Shown: in pieces, positions 1 to 21,745 of the stretch
How positions within the stretch are numbered: position 1 is the first letter of the stretch
Layout of the letters: each line of letters begins with the position of its first letter
Assembly (NCBI GenBank): GCA_965248265.1
Contig: CBDFJF010000002.1
Location: forward strand, 224,001-288,000
DNA from: Candidatus Latescibacterota bacterium
GTDB taxonomy: Bacteria > Latescibacterota > UBA2968 > UBA8231
Direction of reading: 5' to 3'
DNA length: 64,000 nt
The notes under the pieces: model-generated
The model's database searches: none
Seen by the model: the letters and a program-made list of their open reading frames with translations, nothing else
Told to the model about the DNA's origin: nothing
Translations under genes and position numbers: made by a program

Positions 1-1518
1 GGAGGGCACACCAACAGCGCAGCGGGGCAATTCAGCTTTGCTGCAGGCAGGCGGGCGAAGGCCAACCACGACGGCGCCTTTGTGTGGGGTGATCAGACGG
101 ATGGGGATTTCACTTCTACCGCCGTAGATCAGTTTCTGATACGAGCCGGTGGCGGGGTCGGCATCGGTACGACGAGTCCGCAGCGAAATTTGGAAGTAGT
201 ATCAGACAATGAATCTAATGGTATTCGTATACGCTCACAGAATACCAGCGGTCGCCCAGTGCTGGATTTTCTTCACGGTGCAGGTGCTGCTGGAACTGGC
301 GCTGTCGTCAACGGCAGCGTACTTGGAATCATAGATTTTGGGGGGCATGATGGTATTAGCCTCGTTTCAGCCGCAGCTCGTATCCGGGCTTTGGCCGCCA
401 CTAACTGGAACGCCAGTAACCATGACGTCAACCTTGTATTTCAAACAACACAAGGCACCTCAAACACTGAAAAAATGCGGATCACAGCCAGTGGCAACGT
501 CGGCATCGGCACCACAAACGCAACTCACAAGCTGAGTTTCGCCAACGTGACTGGATCGAAGATTGATCTGTTTGACGATACCACAACGCCTCCAAACTAC
601 GGTTTCGGTGTAGAAGCTTCAGAGCTAAGAATAGCTACGGCAAACTCCACGACTTTTTACTCTGGAGGTTATGGTGGCACACAAAGGATGGTGATCGATG
701 GAAGCGGCAACGTCGGCATAGGCGCCACGCCTACAGCTCGACTCCATGTGCAGGAAACAGCCAACCCAGCAGCTCTTTTTAATCGTTCATCATCCGATGG
801 TGTCATTATTTCCATTCGCCAGGACGGCACCGAAGAGGGCACGATCTCCGTATCCGGCACTACCATCTCTTACAATGCCTTCACCGGCTCTCACTACGGC
901 TGGACCGATCAATCGATTGAAACCGCCACCCTCGTCACCCTGACAGGGGACAACCGCCGTCTGCAAAACAACCCGGACTCCGAAATCATCTACGGGGTCA
1001 CCCCGTCAGCCGTCCCCAACGATCCGAAGATCCTGGGAGCCTATCTCAGCCTGCAGGAATCCACTGACCCCGCTGGCCCCGATAACCCCCATTTGGTTAT
1101 GGCCGTAGGCAATGGCGAGATGTGGGTGGTCGATGACGGCCAGGACGTTGAGATCGGTGACCATCTGATCTCCTCTGAGGTCGCAGGTCACGCCATGCGG
1201 GATACCGGTGAGTTTCCGGTCAGCCACATCGTGGCTATTGCTGTCGAGCCTGTAAACTGGAACGTGGTCGAGGAATCGGTCGATGGCCGCAAGCACCGGC
1301 GGATTTCGGTGCTGTTCGAGCGTTTTGCGATGAATCACGCAGTGCAGACAGCGGCAGAATCTGCGGAGTTGACTCTGGTGAAGGCCGAGTTGTCGGAACT
1401 GCGATCCGAGAAAGAGACATTGGCTCGGAGTAACGATGAGTTGCGAACACAGTTGGACGCACTGACCGCTGTCGTGCAAAGGCTGGAGGAGTCACAGCTA
1501 AAGATGGCGGCGAGGTGA
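1..1518 (+). CDS. Tail-fibre-like mosaic protein 1, 5'-truncated by window edge; GNVGIG modules, FTGSH-type C-terminal domain, coiled coil
   Basis: Frame is open from base 1 (GGHTNSAAGQFSFAAGRRAKANHDGAFVW), matching the equivalent segment of 3606..7625. Three GxVGIG repeats; C-terminal ELSELRSEKE coiled coil shared with paralog 2. Confidence 0.85.
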   Translation, partial: GGHTNSAAGQFSFAAGRRAKANHDGAFVWGDQTDGDFTSTAVDQFLIRAGGGVGIGTTSPQRNLEVVSDNESNGIRIRSQNTSGRPVLDFLHGAGAAGTGAVVNGSVLGIIDFGGHDGISLVSAAARIRALAATNWNASNHDVNLVFQTTQGTSNTEKMRITASGNVGIGTTNATHKLSFANVTGSKIDLFDDTTTPPNYGFGVEASELRIATANSTTFYSGGYGGTQRMVIDGSGNVGIGATPTARLHVQETANPAALFNRSSSDGVIISIRQDGTEEGTISVSGTTISYNAFTGSHYGWTDQSIETATLVTLTGDNRRLQNNPDSEIIYGVTPSAVPNDPKILGAYLSLQESTDPAGPDNPHLVMAVGNGEMWVVDDGQDVEIGDHLISSEVAGHAMRDTGEFPVSHIVAIAVEPVNWNVVEESVDGRKHRRISVLFERFAMNHAVQTAAESAELTLVKAELSELRSEKETLARSNDELRTQLDALTAVVQRLEESQLKMAAR

Positions 1519-1550
1519 ACCCGATTCGCGAATAGGTCGGTAGGGGAGGG
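1512..1550. repeat. Conserved downstream flank motif, copy 1
   Basis: GAGGTGAACCCGATTCGC is identical at 1512-1529 and 7708-7725; similarity continues to GGGAGGG. Confidence 0.75.
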
Positions 1551-2060
1551 AGTACACAGCACCCACGGTAGGGCTGAACCTCTGCTCCTCAGCCTATGAC
1601 ATGGGAAAATCCAAGATCGGGTCGCACCGCATGCTTATCCTGGCTGCATGTCGGCCCACAATATCGCTCAAGCGGTCACACCGGACTTGCGCCCTCTCTA
1701 TTACCTGCGCATCGCCAGAGGCCACCAGAACCGCCCTACACGACCAGAGGACGTTATCGGCTATGTCGCCTGGAATCGGAAGGCATGGCCGTTCAGATAC
1801 ACGACAGCCATTGAGTGGAGCGCTGACGAGGTGACGCGGGAAATCATCGAGCTTGAGCGACAGATGATGGAGCCGCGCCAATACAAGAGTTTTGAGCCGT
1901 TCCCGTGATCTACTACCTCCACTTCCACACCAGTCCCCGGGAGGTCCAGGAGGACGAAGTGCGAGTTCATCATCAACAAAATCAACAACTGGGCGAATCC
2001 TGAGATGCAGGAGGACAGGTCGGAACAGTTGCTGAAGGGCGAGCAGGTTGCCATGCGTTG

Positions 2061-2777
2061 TCAGTGAGGTTCGACGGACCGTTCAAGCAACTCCTGAAGC
2101 GGTTCGGGAAAGCTCGTGTAAATCGCTACGGGCACGTCCGGCCACATCCAGTTGTGCGGACGATGGATGTATTTCGGAATGTACGCGATATTCGCACCCA
2201 CCCGGTGCCGGTCGGCAGTTGTGTTGGCGGCGCTGCGGTGCCAGAGAAAGCCGTTCCAGATCAGAAGTGATCCGGCCGGGCCGTCGGCCGTGACCTCGCG
2301 GGTGGGGTCCGGCTCGACCGTGGGGCGCTTGCCCCATCGATGGCTGCCCGGCACGACCCGCGTGCCGCCGTTTTCTGCCGTGAAATCCGTGAGCATCCAC
2401 ATGGTTTGGAGGAACATGGGCCAGGGGGGATAGGGTTCAGGGACAGGGGGCCAGTCCGAATGAAGTTCGCCGTCCGCCGCTCCGGGCTTCACCCACTTGA
2501 TGCAGACACTGTTGGCCAGAAAAAACGGCCAGCCGAAGAAGTGCTTCCCGATCTCCAACACGACCGGATGGGCACAGAGGGGCGCCAGTTCGGGCATCTG
2601 GATCAGTGCCCCTTCCAGATTACCGTACCCGTTCTTTTCATTGACCTTTCCGATCTTATCGGTCATCAGTTGCCGGGCCCGGGACTCGAAGCGAGCGGCC
2701 TCCACCGCGTCCACAAGGCCTTCCACCACGCAGTAGCCCTGCTCTTCGATCCGTCTGCATGCCGTTTGGGTATCCAT
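2061..2777 (-). CDS. Phytanoyl-CoA dioxygenase (PhyH) family protein
   Basis: LHSD iron motif, ENGGTRVVPGSH, LWHRSAAN..R. Confidence 0.9.
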   Translation of the reverse strand: MDTQTACRRIEEQGYCVVEGLVDAVEAARFESRARQLMTDKIGKVNEKNGYGNLEGALIQMPELAPLCAHPVVLEIGKHFFGWPFFLANSVCIKWVKPGAADGELHSDWPPVPEPYPPWPMFLQTMWMLTDFTAENGGTRVVPGSHRWGKRPTVEPDPTREVTADGPAGSLLIWNGFLWHRSAANTTADRHRVGANIAYIPKYIHRPHNWMWPDVPVAIYTSFPEPLQELLERSVEPH

Positions 2778-2992
2778 GGTTTGTCGGTCTCAAGGGATGG
2801 GGCGAGTTTCCCGCCGCGTTGGGGGTGCACCAGTAGCACCTTAGAAGGAGCCCCTACGGTGGATTTAGTACTTGTTCCAACTGGTCTGCAAGGATGATCG
2901 TATCTGTCGTACAAGTGCCGGGCAGCAGCACGAGAGCTATGTGGCTACTACGAACATGACACCTCCTCTTGGGGCAATGGGTGCAGCACGTC

Positions 2993-3165
2993 CCTACCCA
3001 AATGCCCTGCTCGTAAGGAACTTCCGCTGCTCCTTCTCGCTTCTCTGCAAGAAACACGATCCGCATTGCCTACGAGCGGCTGAACCATCCAACCGTTAGC
3101 TGATCGATAGCATCTACTTCAGTCTGAGATAGACGCACTGTAACCACCACTTCCTGTTTCGCCAT
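2993..3165 (-). pseudogene. Disrupted ribbon-helix-helix (CopG-like) gene
   Basis: MAKQEVVVTVRLSQTEVDAIDQL...SRS*AMRIV; TAG at 3070-3072 falls where SRS(E)AMR is expected. A plausible C-terminus FLQRSEKEQRKFLTSRAFG* lies in a shifted frame. Confidence 0.45.
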
Positions 3166-3386
3166 AGGATAAACTCGCGTGTCTGGTAGCCCAAGCCCAA
3201 AAAGGGGATGGCATCTACTCCCGACAGAACAAACGCCGTATGATGAGTTCCAGGTGCGGCAATTACTCACCAACGGACAGCTTATGGGGGTAGAAGTGGG
3301 GGTATTTCCAATAGACATTTCATAAAATGATCTGCGCCGCAATGGGTTACGGCGGACATGCGGTGGACGCCGCCTCCACCATATTG

Positions 3387-3430
3387 AAAAGGGCGCAACT
3401 CTCTGACTTTGGGGGTTGCGCCTTTTCTTG
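3387..3430 (+). terminator. Intrinsic terminator-like hairpin
   Basis: AAAAGGGCGCAACTC...GGGTTGCGCCTTTT followed by a T-rich tail; conserved at 9254-9294. Confidence 0.7.
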
Positions 3431-3543
3431 TTCTGGGTCGCATGGTGGGCACTGTGTCAGTGCCCGTTCTACGGTACAGAATCATTGTGGCTAAAGCATG
3501 GGAATACAAACTCCCAATAACGGCCAAGAACGAGTAAAAATCG

Positions 3544-3600
3544 TCGGAAAGAGGTTTGACAAGACTTATACTGAGTAGAATGAATCCCACTCAGGAGACT
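3544..3600 (+). promoter_or_regulatory. Putative promoter (-10 TATACT), CTGAGT-N12-ACTCAG inverted repeat and AGGAG RBS
   Basis: TATACT at 3567-3572, inverted repeat 3571-3594, RBS just upstream of ATG 3606; conserved in copy 2. Confidence 0.5.
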
Positions 3601-3605
3601 TTCTG

Positions 3606-6600
3606 ATGAAACGGCTGTTACTACTCGCATCATTGTGGCTCGCTGCCCTTTCGACCGTACAGGCCCAGGAGACGGTACCTAAGACGATCGCCTATATGGG
3701 CTACCTAACGGACGCCTCAGGGGACGTTGTCGATGATGGCGACCACACGATCACCTTTCGCCTTTATGAGCAGGCAGCAGGGGGTGTCGTGGTATGGGAG
3801 ACGAGCCGTACGGTGACGACGGGCGACGGGCTCTTCAGTGTGGTGCTGGGCGAGATCGCGTCCCTGGAAGCCGTGTCGTTTGACCGGCCCTATTACCTGG
3901 GCATTTCGATCGGCGCTGGCGATGAGCTGGCCCCACGCATACCCCTGGTAGCCTCTGCCTACAGCCTTCATGCCAAGAGTGTCGAAGCGGGTGCCGTGGG
4001 TACGGAGCAGCTTGCCGATGACTCGGTGACCGGCGCCAAGGTAGCGGATGCCGCAGTAGGCACGGCGCAGTTAGCCGACGGCTCTGTGACCGCGGACAAG
4101 GTTGCGGATGCAGCGATCACGAGCGACGAGCTGGCGGCTGACGCGGTGACGGCAGTCAAGATCGCCTCGGGTGCCGTGGTCACGAGCGTGAACAATGTCA
4201 CCGGTGGGGTCACGGTCACGGGTGGCGACAACGTATCCGTGGCCACCAATGGCAGCATCGTGACTATTACGGCCACAGGCTCAGAGCTGGCCGATGATTC
4301 CGTGACTTCGGCCAAGATCGCCGCCGACGCGGTAACGGCGGCACAAATCGCGGCTGATGCGGTGGGCAATTCCGAACTGGCAGATGTCGCTGTGTCCACC
4401 GCCAAGCTCCAGGATGCCTCCGTGACGGCAGCGAAGCTGGCCACGGACACAGCGGTGCTGAGCCTGAACGAGGCCACCAACGACGTAACACTGGTCGAGG
4501 GTGCCAACATCGACATCGTTCGCGTGGGACAGAACATCACGATCTCGACGACGGGTGGTAATGAGGTCGGTACGGGCGACATCGCGGATAACTCGATCAC
4601 GAGTGCGAAGATCATCGACAGCGCGATCGCGGAGGCGGATCTGGGTGCCGATGCCGTAACGAGTGCCAAGATCGCCGATGGCACCATCGCCGCTGCAGAC
4701 ATAGCGGGTGGCGCTGTCGGCAGTGCGGAACTGGCCGCTGACGCCGTCACTTCGGCGAAGATTGGTGATGGCACCATACTGGCTGCCGACATCGCCGCTG
4801 CTCAGGTAGTCACCAGCGTCAACAGCCTGGAAGACGCCGTCACTCTGGCAGCGGGGTCCAACATTACCATCACCCCAGCCGGTAACACGCTTACCATCGA
4901 CGCCACGGCTGGGGGTGACATTACCGGCGTAACGGCGGGTACGGGCCTTGCCAATGGCGGCACCACCGGTGATGTAACCCTCGATATCGCTGCAGGCGGA
5001 GTCGGTACCACGGAACTGGCCGCAACTGCGGTCACGACAGCCAAGATCGCCGCTGATGCGGTCACCTCGGCTGAGATTGCCAATGCGACGATAGTGGCCG
5101 GTGATGTGGCCGCAGGGGCCGTGGTCAAGACGGTGAACAGCCTCACGGACGCAGTGACCCTGGCTGCGGGTACCAACATGGCGATTACTCCGTCAGGCAA
5201 CACCCTGACCTTTGCCGCTACTGACACAGATACCGACACCCAGAACACCCTCGACGGAGCTTACGACGAAGGTGGAGCAGGAGTTGGCCGTACCATCACG
5301 GCAGACAATGGTGCGGTTGATATCGCCGGGACCGATGGACTGCAGGTCACAAACGGCAGCGTGCTCTTTACTGGCGCCAGCGGCACTACTCCGACCAGCG
5401 GTGCAGGCACACGCATGATGTGGATACCGGCGAAGAAAGCCTTCCGGGCAGGCATCATTGCCGGAACGCAATGGGATGACGCCAACATCGGCGATGAGTC
5501 CACGGTCACTGGTGGAGGTGACAACATCGCCTCGGGACAGCGGTCTGTTGTCAGCGGCGGGGTTACGAACACGGCGAGCGGTATTACATCCACCGTCGGC
5601 GGCGGCCAACTCAATACGGCCACAGCGCTAAATGCGACGGTTGCGGGTGGAACCTTCAACGATGCGACCTTCGGCGCCGCCACCGTCGGAGGTGGCTCCA
5701 GCAATACCGCCTCTACAGTTGGGTCCACGGTCTCAGGAGGCAGCGGCAATACCGCAAATGGGAACACCGCCACCGTCGGCGGAGGCAATGCCAACACCGC
5801 GAGCGGTCAAGACGCCGTTGTAGCCGGCGGTAGCAACAATGTGGCCAGTGGAGATCGCTCCATGATCCCAGGCGGCCTTCAAAACACCGCCGCGGGGCTC
5901 TACAGCTTCGCCGGAGGTCGGCGCGCCAAAGCCAACCACACAGGGGCCTTTGTCTGGGCTGATCAGACGGACGCCGACTTCGCATCGACGGCGGTTGATC
6001 AATTCCTGATTCGCGCGTCTGGTGGAGTCGGCATCGGCACGACTACTCCGGGTGCCCGATTAGAGAGCAATGATGCGGCGGGTCTTCCCGCTACCTCTGG
6101 ATCTACTCAGACCGGATCCATGATTCGGGCGCGTAGCGGAAACGGAGTGGTAGATATTGGGATCAATACCAATGGTGATGGCTGGATTCAAAACTCCGAC
6201 GCCACCAATCTCGGTATCAACTACAACCTTCTGCTTAACCCAAACGGCGGCAACGTCGGCATCGGCACGACGAGTCCGAGCGTTCCGTTACATGTCGATC
6301 TCCCGGGAGCTGGTCATGAGGTTCGTATAGACAAGGATGTTGACTGGGTCGGCAGTGGTTGGACACATCTTCGTCTTAGCGACGCTACGACCCCGAACAA
6401 AATGCTCCGTATTGGGTATAGCGCTGTAGGTGATTTTGCTGTGCTACAGAGCCAAGAAGCTGGTGTAGGTTTCAAACCATTGACTCTGAATCCGAATGGC
6501 GGCGATGTCGGAATCGGCACGACGAGTCCGAGCGGTAAATTTCACGTCAACCTGGCCACAAATGAAACGGCACTGCTGGGCACTTCGTCAGCATCCGGGA

Positions 6601-7625
6601 TATGGGGCGTGAACGGAGGACTACTGAGCCAGTCAAGTATTTTCCAGATCGTCAGCACGGCTGCGAACCCGATGATTTTCTACACCGGGGGGACCTACAA
6701 CACTATGACAGCTGGCACAGAGAGGATGATAATAGAGAGCAGCGGCAACGTCGGCATCGGCACGACGACTCCAGGTTCTATCCTGGAGGTGAAACCGGCG
6801 GCAAATGGCGGCGTTCACGTCGTGAATTCCGGTCTGGCAAATGGGGAATACACGAGGCTCGCACTGGGAAAAAGCCCTGGAAATAATGAAGCCTTTTTCC
6901 TAATCGGAACCTACCATGCTACCGATGCAAGTCGAAAGCTCACGATCGGAACCAGTGAAAGTTGGGGAGGCACCGAGAATCTGGTTTTGACGGGTGAGGG
7001 CAAAGTCGGGATCGGCGCGACTAGCCCCACGGAAAAGCTGACAGTCGCAGGTCATGTCGCGCCCGCTACAGATGGCGTCTACACAAGCGGCACCTCCGGG
7101 CTCAAGTGGAGCGCTGTCTGGGCAACGAATGGCACCATACAGACCTCGGACCGCCGTCTGAAAGAGAATATCGAGGACAGTCCCTACGGGCTTGATGAAG
7201 TGATGGATATGCGTCCGGTCTCCTACACGTGGTTAGATCGAGCCGAGCAAGGTCGCAAGATCGGGTTGATCGCTCAGGAAATGCAGCCAATAGTCTCCGA
7301 AGTCGTGCAAGTGGGTGACGATGAGCGCAACACGCTCGGACTGAACTACTCCGATATAGTCCCTGTTCTGATCAAGGCCATCCAGGAGCAGCAGGAGATC
7401 ATAAAGCTACAGCGCGAGCAATTCGAGAGACACGAAGCGAACGAGCTTGCGAATGTGGAGCTGAGTCAGGTGAAGGAGGAGCTGTCGGAGCTGCGATCGG
7501 AGAAGGAGAAGCTGGCTCTGCACAATGAAGAGTTGCAAATGCAGTTGGAGGCGCTAACGGCTGCAGTGCGGAGGCTGGAAGCGATGGCGGCTGTGGAAGC
7601 GGAAATAGAGCTGGCGGCGAGATAA
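3606..7625 (+). CDS. Secreted tail-fibre-like mosaic protein 2 with peptidase S74 intramolecular chaperone
   Basis: Signal peptide MKRLLLLASLWLAALSTVQA, N-terminal VPKTIAYMGYLTD domain, ADDSVTSAKI stalk repeats, GGxxNxAxG YadA-like repeats, five GxVGIG repeats, TSDRRLKENI S74 motif, coiled coil. Confidence 0.9.
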   Translation: MKRLLLLASLWLAALSTVQAQETVPKTIAYMGYLTDASGDVVDDGDHTITFRLYEQAAGGVVVWETSRTVTTGDGLFSVVLGEIASLEAVSFDRPYYLGISIGAGDELAPRIPLVASAYSLHAKSVEAGAVGTEQLADDSVTGAKVADAAVGTAQLADGSVTADKVADAAITSDELAADAVTAVKIASGAVVTSVNNVTGGVTVTGGDNVSVATNGSIVTITATGSELADDSVTSAKIAADAVTAAQIAADAVGNSELADVAVSTAKLQDASVTAAKLATDTAVLSLNEATNDVTLVEGANIDIVRVGQNITISTTGGNEVGTGDIADNSITSAKIIDSAIAEADLGADAVTSAKIADGTIAAADIAGGAVGSAELAADAVTSAKIGDGTILAADIAAAQVVTSVNSLEDAVTLAAGSNITITPAGNTLTIDATAGGDITGVTAGTGLANGGTTGDVTLDIAAGGVGTTELAATAVTTAKIAADAVTSAEIANATIVAGDVAAGAVVKTVNSLTDAVTLAAGTNMAITPSGNTLTFAATDTDTDTQNTLDGAYDEGGAGVGRTITADNGAVDIAGTDGLQVTNGSVLFTGASGTTPTSGAGTRMMWIPAKKAFRAGIIAGTQWDDANIGDESTVTGGGDNIASGQRSVVSGGVTNTASGITSTVGGGQLNTATALNATVAGGTFNDATFGAATVGGGSSNTASTVGSTVSGGSGNTANGNTATVGGGNANTASGQDAVVAGGSNNVASGDRSMIPGGLQNTAAGLYSFAGGRRAKANHTGAFVWADQTDADFASTAVDQFLIRASGGVGIGTTTPGARLESNDAAGLPATSGSTQTGSMIRARSGNGVVDIGINTNGDGWIQNSDATNLGINYNLLLNPNGGNVGIGTTSPSVPLHVDLPGAGHEVRIDKDVDWVGSGWTHLRLSDATTPNKMLRIGYSAVGDFAVLQSQEAGVGFKPLTLNPNGGDVGIGTTSPSGKFHVNLATNETALLGTSSASGIWGVNGGLLSQSSIFQIVSTAANPMIFYTGGTYNTMTAGTERMIIESSGNVGIGTTTPGSILEVKPAANGGVHVVNSGLANGEYTRLALGKSPGNNEAFFLIGTYHATDASRKLTIGTSESWGGTENLVLTGEGKVGIGATSPTEKLTVAGHVAPATDGVYTSGTSGLKWSAVWATNGTIQTSDRRLKENIEDSPYGLDEVMDMRPVSYTWLDRAEQGRKIGLIAQEMQPIVSEVVQVGDDERNTLGLNYSDIVPVLIKAIQEQQEIIKLQREQFERHEANELANVELSQVKEELSELRSEKEKLALHNEELQMQLEALTAAVRRLEAMAAVEAEIELAAR

Positions 7626-7707
7626 GGGTTTCGAGGAACAAGGACTGCGGCGCTCTCGTCCTGCTATCGCAACTCCTTGACCTACGGTTTGGTGCCCCGC
7701 CTCATGG

Positions 7708-7744
7708 GAGGTGAACCCGATTCGCCAATCGGCTGATGGGAGGG
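7708..7744. repeat. Conserved downstream flank motif, copy 2
   Basis: Matches 1512-1550. Confidence 0.75.
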
Positions 7745-7897
7745 CATATATACTCCCCCATATTTTAACCCAGAAATCTCCACCCTGGCCCTGTTGGTAG
7801 CCCTTCCGAATCTCCGTAGCCTATTGAACAATCCCGGCGGTCACAAAGACCAGCCAGGAGGGAATCTAACTGTGCTGGAGGGTGAAAGGATCAATAG

Positions 7898-8470
7898 ATG
7901 AAAGCGGCACTACTGTTATTGCTGACATTAGGGTTGAGCAGTACCGTTCATGCTCAGCCCGGCCAATGGCAGTTCACGATAAACAACAATTGGGGTTATA
8001 CGGTTGTCGATGTCCCCGCCGCCGTGGAGATACCCGAGATTTCCGGCGGCGAGGGATTATCTGATTGGAATCAGTTCAACTATCGAGGTTTGGCGCAGTT
8101 CCTATACCGCAGCTCGGAGACCGTCTCTTTCGGTCCCGAGATCGGGGTAAGCAGGCTCTACTTCTGGGAGGAGCGCTATGTCCCCATCGGCCTGAGTCCA
8201 CGCTACCGATGGGAAACGGTGTGGACTTGGTTTGCGGGAGGCTTGGTGCGGCTCGACTTAGGGGCCGCCTACTACGTCATGGCAGGCGCCAGCATCCATA
8301 CCTTCTTCAACGGGACCGGTACGACGGTCGGCATTCCCCTGGGGGTCGGCTATACTCTCGTCGTTACCGACCGCTTTAGCATCCCTCTCGAATTTCGAGT
8401 CGATATCGTCTTTGGCGATGCCGTTCCCATCGGTCTGGGCGGCGGCGTTGGCCTGCAGTTCAACCTGTGA
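7898..8470 (+). CDS. Outer-membrane beta-barrel protein
   Basis: Signal peptide, alternating hydrophobic strands, C-terminal GVGLQFNL strand. Confidence 0.7.
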   Translation: MKAALLLLLTLGLSSTVHAQPGQWQFTINNNWGYTVVDVPAAVEIPEISGGEGLSDWNQFNYRGLAQFLYRSSETVSFGPEIGVSRLYFWEERYVPIGLSPRYRWETVWTWFAGGLVRLDLGAAYYVMAGASIHTFFNGTGTTVGIPLGVGYTLVVTDRFSIPLEFRVDIVFGDAVPIGLGGGVGLQFNL

Positions 8471-8677
8471 GCACCCAGACCCTCATCCCGACGCGGCTAC
8501 GTCCGAACAAACCGCATTTGAAACGCCTGCTTTTTGAGACTAGATCGGTTTGAGGTTCAACTCCCGCAAATGGCCCCATTCCTTGCGCGAAAGACAGAAT
8601 CGATCTGTGCCTCCGCGTTGCAGAAGGCGGAGGTCGATTCTATGTTCACATTGGGAATGCTGAAAGGACAAGAGCAA

Positions 8678-8899
8678 ATGCAATCCGTGGATTTGTCGCG
8701 TGTAGTGCACGTCGACCCTGAGATCTTGGGCGGGACGCCAGTCTTCGTCGGCACTCGGGTGCCAATCAGAAGTCTTTTCGACCATCTTGAGGGTGGAGAT
8801 TCCATAGAGGACTTCCTGCGCGGTTTCCCAAGCGTGAAACGCGAGCAGGTGATCGGAATCCTGGAGGAATCTCGCCACCGCGTTCTCGCCCCGTCCTGA
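8678..8899 (+). CDS. DUF433 family antitoxin (VapB45-like)
   Basis: DPEILGGTPVFVGTRVPI...GDSIEDFLRGFP signature. Confidence 0.9.
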   Translation: MQSVDLSRVVHVDPEILGGTPVFVGTRVPIRSLFDHLEGGDSIEDFLRGFPSVKREQVIGILEESRHRVLAPS

Positions 8900-8908
8900 T
8901 TTGAGATC

Positions 8909-9220
8909 TTGCTCGACGAAAATCTGGATTGGCGACTTCAAGACAGCCTACCAGACCACCAAGTCGACTCCGTCGCTCGTCTTGGTTGGGCGGGTATCAA
9001 GAACGGAGAACTGTTGGAGCGAGCTCAAGATCGATTCGACGTTCTGATCACGATGGACAGCAACTTGCCCTGGCAGCAAAATCTCGAACGTTTCGACCTC
9101 TCAGTGATCGCTCTACGAGCTACATCGAACCGATTGTCGGATACTCGGCCACTCATGGAGCAGGTCACAGTTATTCTCCCCACACTCAAGGCTGGAAGGC
9201 TTGTTGTCGTGGCGACGTAG
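8909..9220 (+). CDS. DUF5615 PIN-like toxin (VapC45-like)
   Basis: LLDENL...GWAGIKNGELL...LITMDSNL, directly after DUF433; start codon uncertain (TTG). Confidence 0.85.
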   Translation: MLDENLDWRLQDSLPDHQVDSVARLGWAGIKNGELLERAQDRFDVLITMDSNLPWQQNLERFDLSVIALRATSNRLSDTRPLMEQVTVILPTLKAGRLVVVAT

Positions 9221-9234
9221 CTACGTGACTATGT

Positions 9235-9460
9235 GAGTCCCGCCGGCTTATTGAAAAGCGCAACTCTCTGATTTCGGGGGTTGCGCTTCTTTTTGTTCTG
9301 AGTCGCGTGGGCCGGCACAGACACAGAACCCGCTACGGTACCGATGATTTACGAGCCTGCTTGCAGACACCCTATAGCCAAGAACGAGCAAAAATCATCG
9401 AAAAGAGGTTTCACAAGACTTATACTGAGTAGAATGAATCTCACTCAGGAGACTTTGTTG
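9235..9460 (+). repeat. Duplicated fibre-gene leader, copy 2
   Basis: GAGTCCCGCCGGCT, then the same hairpin, TATACT, inverted repeat and RBS as 3368-3605. Confidence 0.8.
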
Positions 9461-12400
9461 ATGAAACGCCTATTACTACTCGCGTCACTGTGGCTCGCTG
9501 CCCTTCCGACCGTACAGGCACAGGGGACGGTACCCAAGACGATCGCCTACATGGGGTTCCTGACGGACTCGTCAGGGGAGGTTGTCGGTGATGGTGACCA
9601 CGCGATCACCTTTCGCCTCTATGAGCAGGCAGTTGGGGGTGTCGCGGTATGGGAGACGACCCGCACGCTGACGACGAGCAGCGGGCAATTCAGCGTGGTG
9701 CTGGGCGAGATCGCGTCCCTGGAAGCGGTGCCGTTTGACCGACCCTATCTCCTTGGCATCTCGATTGGAGGTGGTGATGAACTGGCCCCGCGCATTGCCC
9801 TGGTGGCCGCGCCCTACAGCCTGCATGCCAAGTCCGTCGAAGATGGCTCTGTGCTGGCGGTGGATGTGGCCGATGGTCAGGTAGTGAAGAGCCTCAACGG
9901 CGCGCAGGACGAAGTCACCCTGGTAGAGGGTGCCAACATCACGATTGAGCAGGCCGGTCAGAATATCACCATCTCCGCCAGTGGGGGGAGTGAGGTTGGC
10001 GTGGGTGATCTGGCGGATAATTCGGTGACTGGCGCCAAGATCGTCGACGCCTCCATTACGGCCAGTGATCTAGCGAATGATGCTGTTACCGCAGCCAAGA
10101 TTGCATCCGGAGCGGCTGTGACGAGCGTGAATGCAGCAACCGATGGTGTCACCATTGAAGGTGGCGGCGACGTGACTGTGGCCACCGTGGGTAACACAGT
10201 GACGATCTCGGCTACGGGTGGGGATCTGGCGGATGATGCGGTGACCTCGGCGAAGATCGCTGATGGTACGGTCGCGACAGTAGATCTGGCCGACGACGCG
10301 GTGACCGCTACGCAGATTGCCGCTGACGCTGTAGCTACTGCCGAAATCCAGGATGCAGCAGTGACGGGTGCCAAGCTGGCGACGGGCAGTGCGGTGTTGA
10401 GCCTCAACGATGCCACCGACGCTGTAAACCTGGTACCGGGAGCCAACGTCACCATCGATCGCGCTGGTCCTAACATTACCATCGGCACCACAGGGGGTAA
10501 TGAGGTAGGCACCGGCGACATAGCGGACAATTCAATAACGAGCGCTAAGATCCTGGACAGTGCCGTTTCCGAGGCCGACCTGGCCACCGATGCGGTAACA
10601 AGTGCCAAGATCGTCGATGGCACGATCGTGGCTGCAGACCTAGCCGCTGGCGCTGTGACGACGACACAGATCGCTGACGCCACGATCACGGCGACCGATC
10701 TGGCGACTGATTCGGTGGACGCCGACGAAATCGCGGTTGATGCTGTAGGCAGCGCGGAGCTGGGTGCTAACGCCGTCACTTCGGCAGAGATTGGTGATGG
10801 CACCATACTGGCTGCCGACATAGCCGTCGGTCAGGTAGTCACCAGCGTCAACAACCTGGAAGACGCCATTACCCTGGCGGCAGGATCCAATATCAACATC
10901 ACCCCGGCCGGTAACACGCTACCATCGACGCCACAGCTGGGGGTGATATTACGGGGGTAACGGCGGGCACGGGCCTTGCCAATGGCGGCACCACCGGTGA
11001 TGTAACCCTCGATATCGCTGCGGGCGGAGTTGGCTCCACGGAGCTGGCCGCGGGTGCGGTCACGACGGCCAAGATCGCCGCTAATGCGGTCACCTCGGCC
11101 GAGATTGCCAATGCTACCATCGCGGCCGGTGATGTGGCCGCAGGGGCCGTGGTCTTGACGGTGAACAGCCTCACCGATGCCGTGACCCTGGATGCTGGTA
11201 CCAACATGGCCATCGCACCTTCGGGCAACACCCTGACCTTTAATGCCACCGACACAGATACGGACACTCAGAACACCCTCGACCAGGCCTACGACGAAGG
11301 TGGAGCGGGAGTTGGCCGTACCATCACGGCTGACAATGGAGCCGTCGATATCGCGGGAGCTGGGGGACTGACCGTGAATGGTAGTGTCGGCATCGGCACG
11401 ACGAGCCCATCTCATCCATTGCATGTGGTGGGAGGTGACGCATACATACCCTATCCGGGTGCCGGTTCGACGGATGGATTCAGGCTGGCACTCGGAAACT
11501 ACGATGGATACATCTGGCGGAATCAGACAGGGGTATTCACAAACGCCATGGTTCTGTCTACCAACTATGCCTTGACTGATGGTGGAGTCGACACAGTACC
11601 GAACGTTGGAGCCGCGACGACGGCTATCTCGCTGGACGATGGGGCGATCAATTTCATGACAGGCGCCATCAATACAGCGCCTTCGACGAGAATGACAGTT
11701 GAAATCGACGGTGATATCGGCATCGGCACGGTGACACCGGCAGCCAACTTAGAGGTAAACGGGGATGTCAGTAGCAATGAGATAGGTACTTTGGTCGCCG
11801 GATCTGCCTCCACGGGCTTCGGGACGGATTACCCATTTCTGGCACTGATAAACGATAACACAACGGCCAACAACTATGCTAGAATCGATTGGCGGGATGC
11901 AGACAATGTAGTCAGCGTCGCAAGTGTCGCCGGCGTGTTCACAGACCACACGAACGACTACGGTGATCTGGCTTTCATAACCCGGAGTGCCGGCGGCTTT
12001 TCCGAGAAGATGCGGATCCTCGGCAACGGCAACGTCGGCATCGGCACGACACCGCCAGGCACTCTCCTGCATCTCGACAAAGGTGGCCACGGGGAGGCAA
12101 TACGCTTAACCAACAGCGGCTTCGGGGACAACAGTATCAGCACCTTCGGAGATGGTTCGGGCCCCGGCCTCTTCCTCGGCGCCAATGCCTATCTCGATGC
12201 TGCCACTGCCGTGCAGCGGCACAACGCGGGCCAGCCGGCCTGGGACCTATCGTTGAACGCAAGCGGTGGCGATAGATTCGCCGTCAGCCGAACCAATGCT
12301 GGCGGCACTCGAACTGAGCATCTGCATATCAATAGCAGTGGCAACGTCGGCATCGGTACGTCAACTCCAGGCGCGCTCCTTCACCTGTCCAAGGGGCACG

Positions 12401-13461
12401 GGGAGGCAATACGTATGACCAACAGCGGCTTCGGAGACAACGCCATCAGTAACTTCGGTGACGGTTCGGGTGTCGGGATGTTCCTCGGCGCCAATGTCTA
12501 TCTGGATGCTGGGACGGCCAGACAGAGATACAACGCCGGTCAGGCAGGATGGGATGTCACGCTAAATGCCAGTGGCGATTATTTCCGCATCAGCCGGACA
12601 GATGCTGGTGGAACTACGACAGATCATTTCCGTATCGATAACGCTGGCCAATTCGGAATCGGCACAAACACCCCATCTCATCAATTACATGTAGTAGGAG
12701 GTGACGTATACCTCCCCTATCCGGGTGCCGGTTCGACGGATGGCTTCAGAATGAATCTGGGAAACTTCGATGGTTACATCTGGAGAAACCAAACCGGCGC
12801 GTATTCGAACAGGCTGGTCATATCAACCAACTATGAACTCAACGACGCGGGAGCCGACCTGATACCTAACGCGGGAGCATCGACGTCGGCAATTGCGCTA
12901 TCAGGCATAATCGAGTTTCAGACAGGTGCTATCAATACGGCGCCCTCAACCAGGATGACGATTGCCACTAGCGGGGAAATCGGCGTCGGCCGGGCACCAA
13001 CAGCCAATGCCTTCGAAGTCGAGGGCGCTGCCTCTAAAACAGCAGCCGGTGACTGGCTCGCCAACTCCGACCGCCGGTTGAAAACCGATGTCCAGGAAAT
13101 TGATAACGCCCTGGCCACGGTTCGCAAACTCCGACCGGTTAAATTTCGCTACAGCGAAGAGTTTCAGGAAGGTCACCCTTCCGTCGGCAACCGCGTTTAC
13201 TACAACTTCATAGCCCAGGAGTATCAGGAGATCTTTCCCGAAAGCGTCCAGGATGACGGCACTGGATATCTCCAGGTAGAAACGTATAGCGTTCGGCCTC
13301 ATCTGGTAGGCGCTGTGCAAGAACTCGATGCGCAGATACAGTCCATGACTCTGGAGAACGAGGCTCTAAAGAGGCAGAATGATGAGCTGAAGGCACAAAT
13401 GGCCTCTCTATCATCGACCATACAACGTCTCGAGAGAATGGTCAGTACAACCAACCGATAG
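9461..13461 (+). pseudogene. Secreted tail-fibre-like mosaic protein 3 (S74 chaperone), split by a 1-nt deletion near 10920
   Basis: ORFs 9461..10960 and ..13461 together align to paralog 2. ACGCTACC here versus ACGCTTACC at about 4887-4895; NSDRRLKTDV S74 motif. May be a sequencing error. Confidence 0.85.
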
Positions 13462-18868: not shown

Positions 18869-21745
18869 ATGAACGATAGATTGGAAGCGGCACAGCCGTA
18901 CGACGGGTCTCGTATCACCAGGCTGACCGAAGTCCCGCCTTCATACAACCTCTCCCATGCCGAGGATGGCATGATCGGCCCGCCGCCGTACGAGTTCAAC
19001 GGCGTGACGATGCGGTTCTTTCCGCTGCGCGCCAAGCTGAGCCGCCTGCAAAGCTTCTGCGACAGGTACCTGAACCTCATGCCCCCGGAGATTGCCGAGT
19101 TTCGCCCCTCCCTCCCGTACGTGTTTCTACAGCTGATCAACTACGGCGAGATGACCGGTCAGATGCAGCGCGGCGGCTGGGTCTCTCAGAACGAGCTCGT
19201 GTTCTCGATCTTCCTCGACTGGTTCCGGCTCGACAACGGCAAGTACGTCTTCGAGCGGACGGCCGCCGTTGCGCCGTTTATCCTCGTCGACCAGGTGGCA
19301 TCGCAGGCCACGGGCAGGGAGATCTTCGGTTGGCCCAAGACCCAGGGCTGGCTCGGCGAGTTCGATGTTCACGGTCACTCACCCGCTCAGCGGCGGCATC
19401 CCCTGATCCGGGTCAAGTCGAATGTGTTCCCGCAGGTCTTCGAGGGCAGCCGCATGGAGAAGGAGGTGATCCTCGAGATAGATTACGACGAGCCACCGAA
19501 CCTGACACAGTGGCCGCCAAATCGCTGGAGTCCGTTCAACCCGTTTGTCGCCGTCTCCGAGGCGATTCTCAACGGTGCCGCAATCTGGGACCGGTTCGTG
19601 GGCTTGGCGGCGGGCGCCTCGATGGGCGGGTTGATGCAGAATCTGGATTCCATCCCCGCCAGGCTCTCACAGTTGTTCGAGAGCTTTCGATCCCTGTCGC
19701 CCCCGACTGCAAACACCGTGAACCTGAAACAGTTCCGGGATGGCTATTTCCCGGATGCCGTCTGCTACCAGGCCATCGTCAACAGCCAGCTGCAGCTCGT
19801 CGACTTCAACGCCGGTGGCATGCTCGGCGACGAGAACCTGCTTCGGGGAGACCCCAGTGCCGGCTTCCAGATTCGCATTCACGACTACCCCACACTGCCG
19901 GTTCTGAACACCCTGGGCATCGAGGCCGATGCGGTCGAGTATGGAGCGCCCGAGGTCGCGGTGCTGAAGCCGGACTTTCCGTTCTGGGCCGACGTCAACA
20001 TGCGTTACGTGGCGGGTGAGAACGTATGCTGGCGTACCCGGCATTTCACCGGGTGGTGGTCGAAACCGAATGGAGAGTTGGACTACAAAGAAAACCCCAA
20101 GGAGAGGCCCGAAGACATATTTTCCTACAACACCGCTCGAGGCGCGGCCGCGATCTCCCTGCCCGGGCCGTTTCGCTTCCCGAACGCGACCGTCCTCGTG
20201 CTGCCACTGCTGGCCAGCAAGGAGAAGATGTCGGAATTCGTCGACAAATACCTCAACGACGCAGAAGAGGAGCTGCGCTTCGAGGTGTTCGGCACCTACG
20301 TCTATCTTCTGATCTGGACCTACGACGGGGTGTGGTCCAAAACCGATGATATCGGCAAGTGGGCGACGCGAGAGATCCGGTTCTCGATCCCGGTTAAGCG
20401 TTACAAGAAAGTGGGCGAAAACTGGGTTCTGGCCAGCGCGGGCATGGTTTCTCCCTTCGCCTACAACGACGGAGAGATTGCCACGACGATCGGCCGAGAG
20501 CAGTACGGATGGCCGACCGTACAGAGCGTCATCCGCTCGCAAGGAGATGGTGCCCTAGAGTTGGGCGGAGCAGGTCAGCACGGTCGGGACCACCAAACCC
20601 TTATGCAGCTCGAGGTGCCGACTCTTTCGTCTCTGACGATGGGTCAGGAGATGCGGCTCAGCCGGCTCATGGATATCGTACAAGGCGATTTGCCTCTCGC
20701 CGAGGAAAGCGACAAGTGGAGCGCTGTGACCGAGTCGTGGGGCCGCGAGTTGAAGAAGGAACTTGAACGCAAGCAGCAGGCTCTCGAAGGCGAGGCCCTG
20801 GACCGACTTCGCAAGCTGCTGACTCTGGGGCTGGAGCCGCTGGCGCACAAGACCCCGATCAACGAGTTCTCACTGAAGCAGTTCAGGGACGCTGAGGAGC
20901 CCGACAAGGCCTGCTTCCAGTCGATCGTTCAGACCCCATTCGTGATCGAGAGATTACACGATCTGCGCGAGATAGAGTCCCAGATGCACGTCCACCTCTA
21001 CCGGTCAGAGAGCCAGCCGATCATGCAGAAGCTGTGGCTGAGTCACAAGCTGTGTGACTCAGCCGATGGCGTCGTCTACAGCCTGGAGCCAATCCGACCC
21101 TTCGTGATGCGGCTAGACCTCAGGGTGGACGAAGGCATCGATATCTGGGCCAAGACGGTCGGCCGAAAAAACCTGGTGCCGGAGGGAGCGCCAACTGAAC
21201 CCCCGCCCGCTAGCTATTTTGACGATGAGCACGAAGGGATAAATGTGGGTCTCGGAGCCCTGCAGGGTCTCGTCCCACCAGAGCCGGTCATGGAACACTG
21301 GGGTGATTTGTCGGACAGCCAGGACAGCAAGGCTTGCCAGGTTGCCGGTCACGCCAAGGATTGGGCGTCCAATACGCGAGAGCGCCTGTCGGTAGAGGGA
21401 GCCAGGGACGCCATGGAGCCCCATCCGGGAACCGAGGACGCCGCGTTAGATGCAGCCAAGTACGTGGAGCCGCAAATGGCAATCGAGTGCATTCTCAGCG
21501 CCGAGTGGGGTCACACCGACCGCGGAACGACCTCGCGACGCACTCTCCGCAGCGATCTCGAAGGGGACCCCTATCCCGCCAGACAGAAGCCCTGCTTCTG
21601 CGTGCGACGAGACTCCGTCGGGAAGTCGTGTGCCAAAGAGCTGTTCGGTAAGCGGGCCAAAAACGACAACGCCTACAGGCTGTCCGCTGCCGAACTTGGC
21701 TGGTACCCGGGTGAGGAACCTCCCGCAAGTACCCCTGCTTCCTGA
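18869..21745 (+). CDS. Tandem acetoacetate-decarboxylase-like domain protein
   Basis: Two repeats, GREIFGWPK...LKQFRD and GREQYGWPT...LKQFRD. Confidence 0.7.
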   Translation: MNDRLEAAQPYDGSRITRLTEVPPSYNLSHAEDGMIGPPPYEFNGVTMRFFPLRAKLSRLQSFCDRYLNLMPPEIAEFRPSLPYVFLQLINYGEMTGQMQRGGWVSQNELVFSIFLDWFRLDNGKYVFERTAAVAPFILVDQVASQATGREIFGWPKTQGWLGEFDVHGHSPAQRRHPLIRVKSNVFPQVFEGSRMEKEVILEIDYDEPPNLTQWPPNRWSPFNPFVAVSEAILNGAAIWDRFVGLAAGASMGGLMQNLDSIPARLSQLFESFRSLSPPTANTVNLKQFRDGYFPDAVCYQAIVNSQLQLVDFNAGGMLGDENLLRGDPSAGFQIRIHDYPTLPVLNTLGIEADAVEYGAPEVAVLKPDFPFWADVNMRYVAGENVCWRTRHFTGWWSKPNGELDYKENPKERPEDIFSYNTARGAAAISLPGPFRFPNATVLVLPLLASKEKMSEFVDKYLNDAEEELRFEVFGTYVYLLIWTYDGVWSKTDDIGKWATREIRFSIPVKRYKKVGENWVLASAGMVSPFAYNDGEIATTIGREQYGWPTVQSVIRSQGDGALELGGAGQHGRDHQTLMQLEVPTLSSLTMGQEMRLSRLMDIVQGDLPLAEESDKWSAVTESWGRELKKELERKQQALEGEALDRLRKLLTLGLEPLAHKTPINEFSLKQFRDAEEPDKACFQSIVQTPFVIERLHDLREIESQMHVHLYRSESQPIMQKLWLSHKLCDSADGVVYSLEPIRPFVMRLDLRVDEGIDIWAKTVGRKNLVPEGAPTEPPPASYFDDEHEGINVGLGALQGLVPPEPVMEHWGDLSDSQDSKACQVAGHAKDWASNTRERLSVEGARDAMEPHPGTEDAALDAAKYVEPQMAIECILSAEWGHTDRGTTSRRTLRSDLEGDPYPARQKPCFCVRRDSVGKSCAKELFGKRAKNDNAYRLSAAELGWYPGEEPPASTPAS

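Follow-up and report, generated by a model that had tools for sequence, protein, structure and literature searches.

A tandem array of candidate MAT-like surface fibres in a Latescibacterota chromosome

Genes resembling phage tail fibres in a bacterial chromosome raise the question of whether they belong to a virion or to the cell and, if to the cell, how their products are held there. We addressed this question for a 64,000-nt stretch of DNA (the window; C2:224001-288000) from Candidatus Latescibacterota bacterium (assembly GCA_965248265.1), whose genome of 7.32 Mb comprises two contigs, C1 and C2, and is 92% complete. A single marker places the host in this phylum, its closest named PNPase relative being a 'Candidatus Latescibacterota bacterium' at 78%. 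An earlier note on this DNA had described three same-strand paralogs of secreted, mosaic fibre proteins. All three lie within the window, but the array numbers four same-strand genes (A–D): A is located upstream at C2:216121-220224, and B, the first window gene, begins outside the window. A genome-wide count of paralogs of the N-terminal domain (N-domain), which the note had proposed, returned eight, with A–D in tandem on C2 and the close paralogs E, F and G as well as the distant paralog H on C1. We conclude that the array is probably a chromosomal, non-phage repertoire of trimeric surface fibres akin to the mosaic adhesive trimers (MAT) of Bdellovibrio bacteriovorus; by analogy, the window fibres would be displayed on the cell surface and bind ligands. 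The note's core proposal of a constant exported base with variable tips, a non-phage setting and a likeness to MAT is borne out by the sharing of modules, the homology of the N-domain and its lack of matches in phage records.

A constant base with exchangeable heads

All eight paralogs open on a signal-peptide-like start (judged by eye), through which they would be exported by the Sec pathway. In the seven close paralogs, this start is followed by a domain of 105 aa and then by a stalk of repeats that ends with GAVDIAG (residue 572–633), which together form a constant base of ~575–630 aa; the stalk may serve to keep the head away from the cell. The bases of C and D had been called almost identical in the earlier note. 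The alignment it gave (~4720–5330 with ~10750–11360) was recovered at 4698–5342 against 10727–11370, with 87% identity over 645 nt, while the wording was too strong: identity is 82% between the two N-domains and 71% between the constant parts, where indels also occur. The same 5' cassette—a hairpin, a promoter-like block and a ribosome site—precedes all four array genes, suggesting that the array grew by duplicating whole units of terminator, promoter and gene. Promoter and terminator pattern matches alone are at chance level, and the evidence for the cassette is its conservation in 4/4 copies.

The N-domain was modelled as a six-strand immunoglobulin (Ig)-like beta-sandwich (predicted local distance difference test, pLDDT, 87). 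A fold search gave no match at Z ≥ 8 (best Z 7.5, generic Ig-like folds only), and a viral structure library yielded one match at E ≤ 0.001 (TM-score 0.53). At the sequence level, 62 of 64 aligned N-domain rows matched Bdello_MAT_N (NF053851) at E ≤ 0.01 (best 2.1e-10) and six of the eight genome-wide matches to this model at E ≤ 0.1 were the fibres described here. Judged from these profile matches, the domain is remotely homologous to its MAT counterpart in Bdellovibrio. Its relatives amount to 23,883 clusters at 50% clustering and span many phyla; within the phylum, 25 of 151 genomes carry it, the present genome with the most copies. The rarity assumed in the earlier note was hence overrated. 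A metagenome scan recovered 25 stalk-only loci and no close orthologue.

Two further arrangements were seen among N-domain relatives. In one genome (G021, L077:8284-19343), three fibre genes stand in an independent tandem array; their stalks are short and their UspA1-like heads very long, and next to them comes a large gene with a type IX secretion system (T9SS) tail and an S-x-N-Y-repeat start. Short N-domain proteins of 320–390 aa occupy a conserved site beside a bifunctional-nuclease-like gene at eight loci (L096, L097, L100, L101, L082, L102, L104, L105), some of which adjoin a small gene combining a dockerin with the adaptor peptide described below (convergent in three) and others none.

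Beyond the stalk, the heads are strings of 60–140-aa modules, each starting at G[ND]VGIG. Those of A, B and C include a 14–15-residue Gly-rich repeat block like that of UspA1 (3pr7, E 2.6e-16), and the head of C additionally matches Bd2133 weakly (8ond, E 0.0014). The note had considered the heads unrelated. Those of C and D are indeed just 25% identical over 513 columns, and heads vary among paralogs and relatives, but individual modules recur in new orders: module C2 equals G3 (84% identity), C4 equals G1 and G2 (73%), D4 equals E6 (64%), and the B tip equals the G tip (71%). The relative G011 has modules in common with B3 (59%) and part of F (73%), and shares 715 nt with C at 77%. Database fragments couple the same modules to other tips (by eye), and G contains an exact 279-nt junction-to-junction duplication. 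DNA blocks end within 45 nt of a junction in 24 of 78 cases (random, 11.0 ± 3.0; maximum 25 in 2000). Head modules may have been swapped, duplicated and deleted at the repeated G[ND]VGIG junction, and the array clearly records how, in nature, the modules of a cellular fibre are shuffled.

The fibres end in one of two ways. A peptidase S74 domain with an SDxxxK motif closes A, C, D, E, F and H, and a G2-like domain closes B and G. Of the three window genes, two (C and D) have S74 endings; the last domain of B is peptidase-G2/phi29-gp12-like. The B tip has a similarity of 0.92 to a Peptidase_G2 cluster (Atlas); against Pfam PF11962, scores are 13.9–15.5 bits (E 0.036 for the B tip), under the cut-off of 25. 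A model of this tip (pLDDT 90) aligned with the C-terminal fragment of phi29 gp12 (3gqh) at Z 10.6 (root-mean-square deviation 3.1, 107 aligned residues, 23% identity), a match tied with capsid decoration proteins (9ocb, Z 11.4; 8qsy, Z 10.9). The motif FTGSH is invariant in 32/32 ungapped rows and is placed where the gp12 fragment begins. S74 chaperones start trimer folding and then cut themselves off. Phi29 gp12 is described as shedding its C-terminal chaperone (PMC9863714). By analogy, the B tip might self-cleave around FTGSH, and either type of chaperone, S74 or G2-like, would start trimer folding and then release itself in these fibres.

A candidate anchor in relatives and its bearing on the array

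The Discussion of the MAT paper states that such fibres exist in other bacteria and that what the N-domain binds on the surface has yet to be identified (PMC10769870); the accessible text of a 2026 review names no MAT surface partner (PMC13689555), and literature searches, which did not extend to subscription journals, showed no paper on a MAT anchor or on such fibres in Latescibacterota. Relatives often have, next to an N-domain gene, a gene whose product starts with a signal peptide and a ~50-aa peptide (VIxxGG ... LxGTxGQ ... GF) and continues through spacers into a tail that is T9SS-type, dockerin-like or a short YLPxI sequence. We refer to these proteins as adaptors. The discovery set supplied the seeds of the adaptor model; in it, N-domain genes had an adaptor next to them at 5 of 14 named loci, drawn from several phyla, and at 4 of 8 loci of relatives, with further weak cases in the first group and one in the second. 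The seed model found six matches in 41 related genomes, five being seeds that adjoin fibres. In a held-out test, the adjacent gene scored above 15 bits at 5 of 20 new N-domain places and eight more adaptors were recognized by eye, in a set where two loci were cut by contig ends, one gene was broken and some genomes were kin. Control loci without an N-domain gave 0/34 (527 kb, best 7.8 bits) and 0/26 (246 kb). A period-19 repeat runs through the adaptor peptide (z 6.9 over 17 peptides) and is singly significant in 5 of 12, all of them Chloroflexota or Zixibacteria-like rows. A search for Bdellovibrio MAT loci in which to look for adaptors matched nothing in 1 and 61 genomes, a result uninformative on the adaptor.

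With respect to adaptor tails, the Chloroflexota form (L036:5170-5475, L042:5049-7549) is a ~100-aa protein made up of signal peptide, peptide and YLPxI tail, and a Lysobacter adaptor (L024) carries an IFxNGLE tail; YLPxI and IFxNGLE are candidate sorting signals.

Structure prediction was applied to the cognate pair of G011 rather than to the window's own pair, combining three 132-aa N-termini with one 52-aa peptide. The complex reached interface scores (ipSAE) of 0.75, 0.72 and 0.75, the best control 0.00; this mark is attained by 116/157 solved and 2/215 mismatched pairs, counts that are only roughly valid for the G011 job. Runs agreed in at least 96% of contacts, with a partner pLDDT of at least 78 and a pLDDT of 89 for the N-terminal trimer in the presence of the peptide. 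In the model, one peptide contacts all three N-domains on the same face (residues 7–16 and 77–97), which supports binding of the G011 peptide to the N-domain trimer.

Going by the gene linkage and the modelled complex, the N-domain trimer would, across the wider family, probably be clipped to the envelope by one three-repeat peptide bearing a T9SS-type, dockerin or other tail. We lean, by a narrow preference, towards a wider proposal. The surface partner of MAT-type fibres would, in many phyla, be a single secreted peptide of ~50 residues, built from three pseudo-repeats, that engages the three N-domains of the trimer together and is re-targeted by T9SS-type, dockerin or short Chloroflexota-type tails; the present genome would use a co-diverged clip, and the heads would constitute a cassette library recombined at the conserved junction and exchanged between genera. 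If true, such an anchor would explain how a family of ~24,000 clusters lacking an export tag or membrane anchor reaches the cell surface and stays there. The modelled 3:1 complex, with its named interface residues, makes the question of MAT anchoring testable using two small proteins.

In the present genome, SprA and PorV are matched above cut-off, and a T9SS-like tail motif occurs in 53 frames. The fibres themselves have no C-terminal T9SS sorting domain (TIGR04183/PF18962); many adaptors have one. Just downstream of H lies the genome's adaptor candidate (C1:1654822-1659015), an FN3 protein of 1397 aa that ends in a T9SS-type tail. Its adaptor-model scores are circular because it was itself a seed. 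As a canonical adaptor it was rejected, given that it fails the leave-one-out search and that its own period-19 signal is non-significant (z 1.3). A stand-alone S74 fragment (C1:1658978-1659424, L074) is found between fibre H and this T9SS-tailed gene.

Several results weigh against the proposed MAT-like repertoire. No adaptor adjoins any array gene, and a model built without the candidate neither recovered it nor found another adaptor genome-wide. A position of the modelled contact strand that is Gln in 123 of 150 relatives is Met in the close paralogs, window fibres included, and conservation is not significantly higher in interface columns than in the remainder (0.59 vs 0.53, p 0.11). As assembled, three of the seven close paralogs are broken, D and F by frameshifts and G by an IS481 element. 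The fibre N-domains score 20.7–22.4 bits against an NCBIfam cut-off of 60 for Bdello_MAT_N and cover just positions 3–77 of its 162. Finally, the enrichment of DNA block ends near head junctions is inflated because the conserved motif itself lengthens alignments.

The leave-one-out result, the Gln-to-Met change in all close paralogs and the broken copies, along with the 0–2 copies held by most relatives, would also fit an expansion that is recent and in part decaying, its products being secreted without an anchor—as released fibres, matrix or phage decoys—or functionless after adaptor loss. We consider this unlikely, though it is the strongest of the alternatives. Four of the seven close paralogs are intact 4–4.5 kb frames with intact chaperone motifs, the promoter cassette is conserved, and the window N-domains retain 14–15 of 26 modelled interface residues as against 24–27 of 69 elsewhere. 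An adaptor may also be unassembled, the genome being 92% complete, and the T9SS-tailed gene downstream of H does have an adaptor-like start. In this genome, the clip partner would be missing, unassembled or diverged: the fibres may be released, or they may be held by a clip that has diverged along with them or whose gene is absent from the assembly.

Lifestyle, phage context and array layout

The MAT-like architecture and the capping-loop-like junction motif, as described in the available text for Bdellovibrio (PMC10769870), together with the top copy number among the 151 genomes of the phylum, could point to recognition of prey or host cells in a predatory or epibiotic lifestyle instead of general attachment. 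The 7.3-Mb genome size, the abundance of catabolic genes around the loci and the occurrence of the N-domain family in many phyla make this improbable. On the main reading and by analogy with MAT, the variable modules would recognize ligands exposed on the surfaces of particles, hosts or other cells.

Could the fibres instead serve a prophage, a tailocin or a contractile injection system as receptor-binding proteins? PHROG tail fibres are matched by stalk, heads and chaperones alike, and broken tape-measure, tail-J and integrase pieces lie about 9–26 kb upstream of A, a tail relic from which the array might originate. However, the relic pieces are mostly on the opposite strand, and cellular and insertion sequence (IS) genes intervene before the array. 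All fibres carry signal peptides, and the other contig has four further paralogs with cellular genes around them. The N-domain had no match in 50,697 phage records and none in PHROGs, 16 candidate stretches from viruses contained no true hit for it, and the S74 fibre of the genome's own prophage (C2:3.46 Mb) lacks it. The earlier note had seen no capsid, terminase or baseplate genes nearby: terminase (PF03354, PF03237), sheath (PF04984) and baseplate J (PF04865) families indeed had no match in the 92%-complete genome, although these searches were not exhaustive, since both terminase families also missed the podovirus-like prophage 3.2 Mb away, and the broken tail relics do lie upstream. No intact prophage or injection system was found upstream. 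A phage origin of this kind is largely refuted, and we give it very little credence.

Two elements on C2 belong to this context. The podovirus-like prophage (C2:3445001-3461000, L075) encodes a major head protein, virion proteins and the S74 fibre and is located near a tRNA-Gly gene. Upstream of the array, an 18.8-kb stretch (C2:189063-207871; window -34938 to -16130) is flanked by an exact 393-nt direct repeat and mixes tail-J, tape-measure and integrase fragments with cellular surface genes, in keeping with either a relic element or an assembly join.

That the array or its mosaic heads are partly an assembly artefact of repeats is similarly hard to credit: there are one-base gaps in D and F, and the exact 279-nt and 393-nt repeats would suit such an origin, but contigs from four runs of one sample, which is possibly the source, span heads and intergenic stretches in pieces of 1.1–2.5 kb with no differing letters, array copies differ by 10–30%, and the same modules occur in other genera. 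Fibre D is split by the one-base gap at 10919/10920. Contigs from three of four runs of one sample have an extra base at this site, whereas paralog G is identical to D over ~47 nt around it, so that a sequencing error and a real lesion are both possible. The IS481-family element within G (C1:2293654-2294970, L073) has seven other full copies, identical or near-identical, and one partial copy in the genome. The G011 fibre is also IS-interrupted, in the same tip domain as G.

Unrelated passenger genes separate the fibre genes of the array (Table 1). Homologues of the barrel-like gene were not linked to fibre genes in four other genomes. The DUF433 and DUF5615 pair is presumably toxin-antitoxin-like. 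Elsewhere in the window, 18869-21745 encodes a 958-aa protein of two acetoacetate-decarboxylase-like halves (weak Pfam ADC match). Upstream of the array and on the opposite strand, L070:5075-9043 (window about -14900 to -10960) holds an OmpA-domain gene and a BNR-repeat gene with a T9SS-type tail. On the other contig, a fibre-like gene at C1:267171-267330 has a ribosome site and a signal peptide and stops after 37 codons, making a ninth, truncated start.

Table 1 Features of the fibre array in window coordinates
Feature	Position	Strand	Remarks
Fibre B, 3' part	1..1518	+	Whole protein 1510 aa, start at window -3014 (C2:220986); module junctions ~151, 493, 706
B tip, non-S74	766..1350	+	Peptidase-G2/phi29-gp12-like beta-tulip domain; invariant FTGSH motif in 871-894 region
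PhyH-family dioxygenase, passenger between B and C	2061..2777	-	Pfam E 2.7e-25
5' cassette of fibre C	3370..3605	+	Terminator-like hairpin 3388-3426 and conserved promoter/ribosome-binding-site block
Fibre C gene	3606..7625	+	Open reading frame
Fibre C signal peptide	3606..3665	+	Basic start, hydrophobic core, AxA; judged by eye
Fibre C N-terminal domain	3666..3980	+	Six-strand Ig-like sandwich, by sequence a remote homologue of Bdello_MAT_N
Fibre C constant stalk	3981..5330	+	5/10-residue repeats and beta-hairpin knots; PHROG tail-fibre matches
Fibre C head	5331..7145	+	UspA1-like repeat block, then modules; junctions 6021, 6249, 6501, 6744, 6999
Fibre C peptidase S74 chaperone (SDRRLK) and coiled-coil-like C-terminal tail	7146..7625	+	Pfam E 1.3e-14
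Small outer-membrane-barrel-like protein, passenger	7898..8470	+	Weak TIGR04565 match, E 0.0056
DUF433 and DUF5615 gene pair, passenger	8645..9220	+	Domain matches
5' cassette of fibre D	9240..9460	+	Hairpin 9256-9288, promoter-like 9398-9426
Fibre D	9461..13461	+	~1333 aa read through with X; junctions 11380, 11710, 12028, 12340, 12646, 12973; S74 13066-13248

Comparison with known systems

Phage tail fibres and spikes (the S74 proteins of K1F and T5 pb1; phi29 gp12; peptidase G2) resemble the array proteins in their C-terminal chaperone folds, beta-helix-like modules and PHROG matches. The array proteins differ from them in their export by signal peptide, in an N-domain not found in the phage records, in a context without virion genes among those found and in bearing FTGSH instead of a gp12-type motif. 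Moraxella UspA1, a trimeric autotransporter adhesin, shares the Gly-rich head repeat block of A, B and C; unlike UspA1, the fibres have no autotransporter barrel, and the block is one exchangeable module. A looser likeness links the adaptors to PamT, the pilus tip of the Pam system of the candidate phyla radiation (CPR), as far as the available text describes it (PMC13278184): a single adaptor, from Chloroflexota, aligns with the first part of the PamT model (E 3.7e-6; 26.5 bits, where the cut-off is 240), and both involve a theme of strand donation. As this match takes in the signal peptide and concerns 1 of 17 proteins scanned, and as no pam genes were found here, we judged the relation weak and a lead only.

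The closest counterpart is the MAT system of B. bacteriovorus with its S74 and NS74 groups, as set out in the portions available of Caulton et al. 2024 (PMC10769870). Common to both are a signal peptide followed by a conserved beta-rich domain, a long fibre, a family of paralogs with constant base and swapped tips, an S74 domain with SDxxxK or a substitute C-terminal domain, and a VGIG-x-x-x-P capping-loop-like motif, to which the remote homology of the N-domain and the weak sequence match to Bd2133 can be added. In contrast to MAT, the N-domain falls under the NCBIfam cut-off and matches only the first half of the model; the host is a member of the Latescibacterota with no known predation, and its genes are arrayed in tandem, each unit with a head of its own. 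Tips other than S74 resemble the phi29 gp12 chaperone here and are lectin or TNF sandwiches in the MAT proteins described, internal modules are shuffled as well as tips, and relatives have a linked candidate anchor peptide, whereas the surface partner of MAT is stated there as unidentified. Even so, the fibre array, while failing the curated MAT cut-off, would work like the MAT family and appears as one example of a common architecture.

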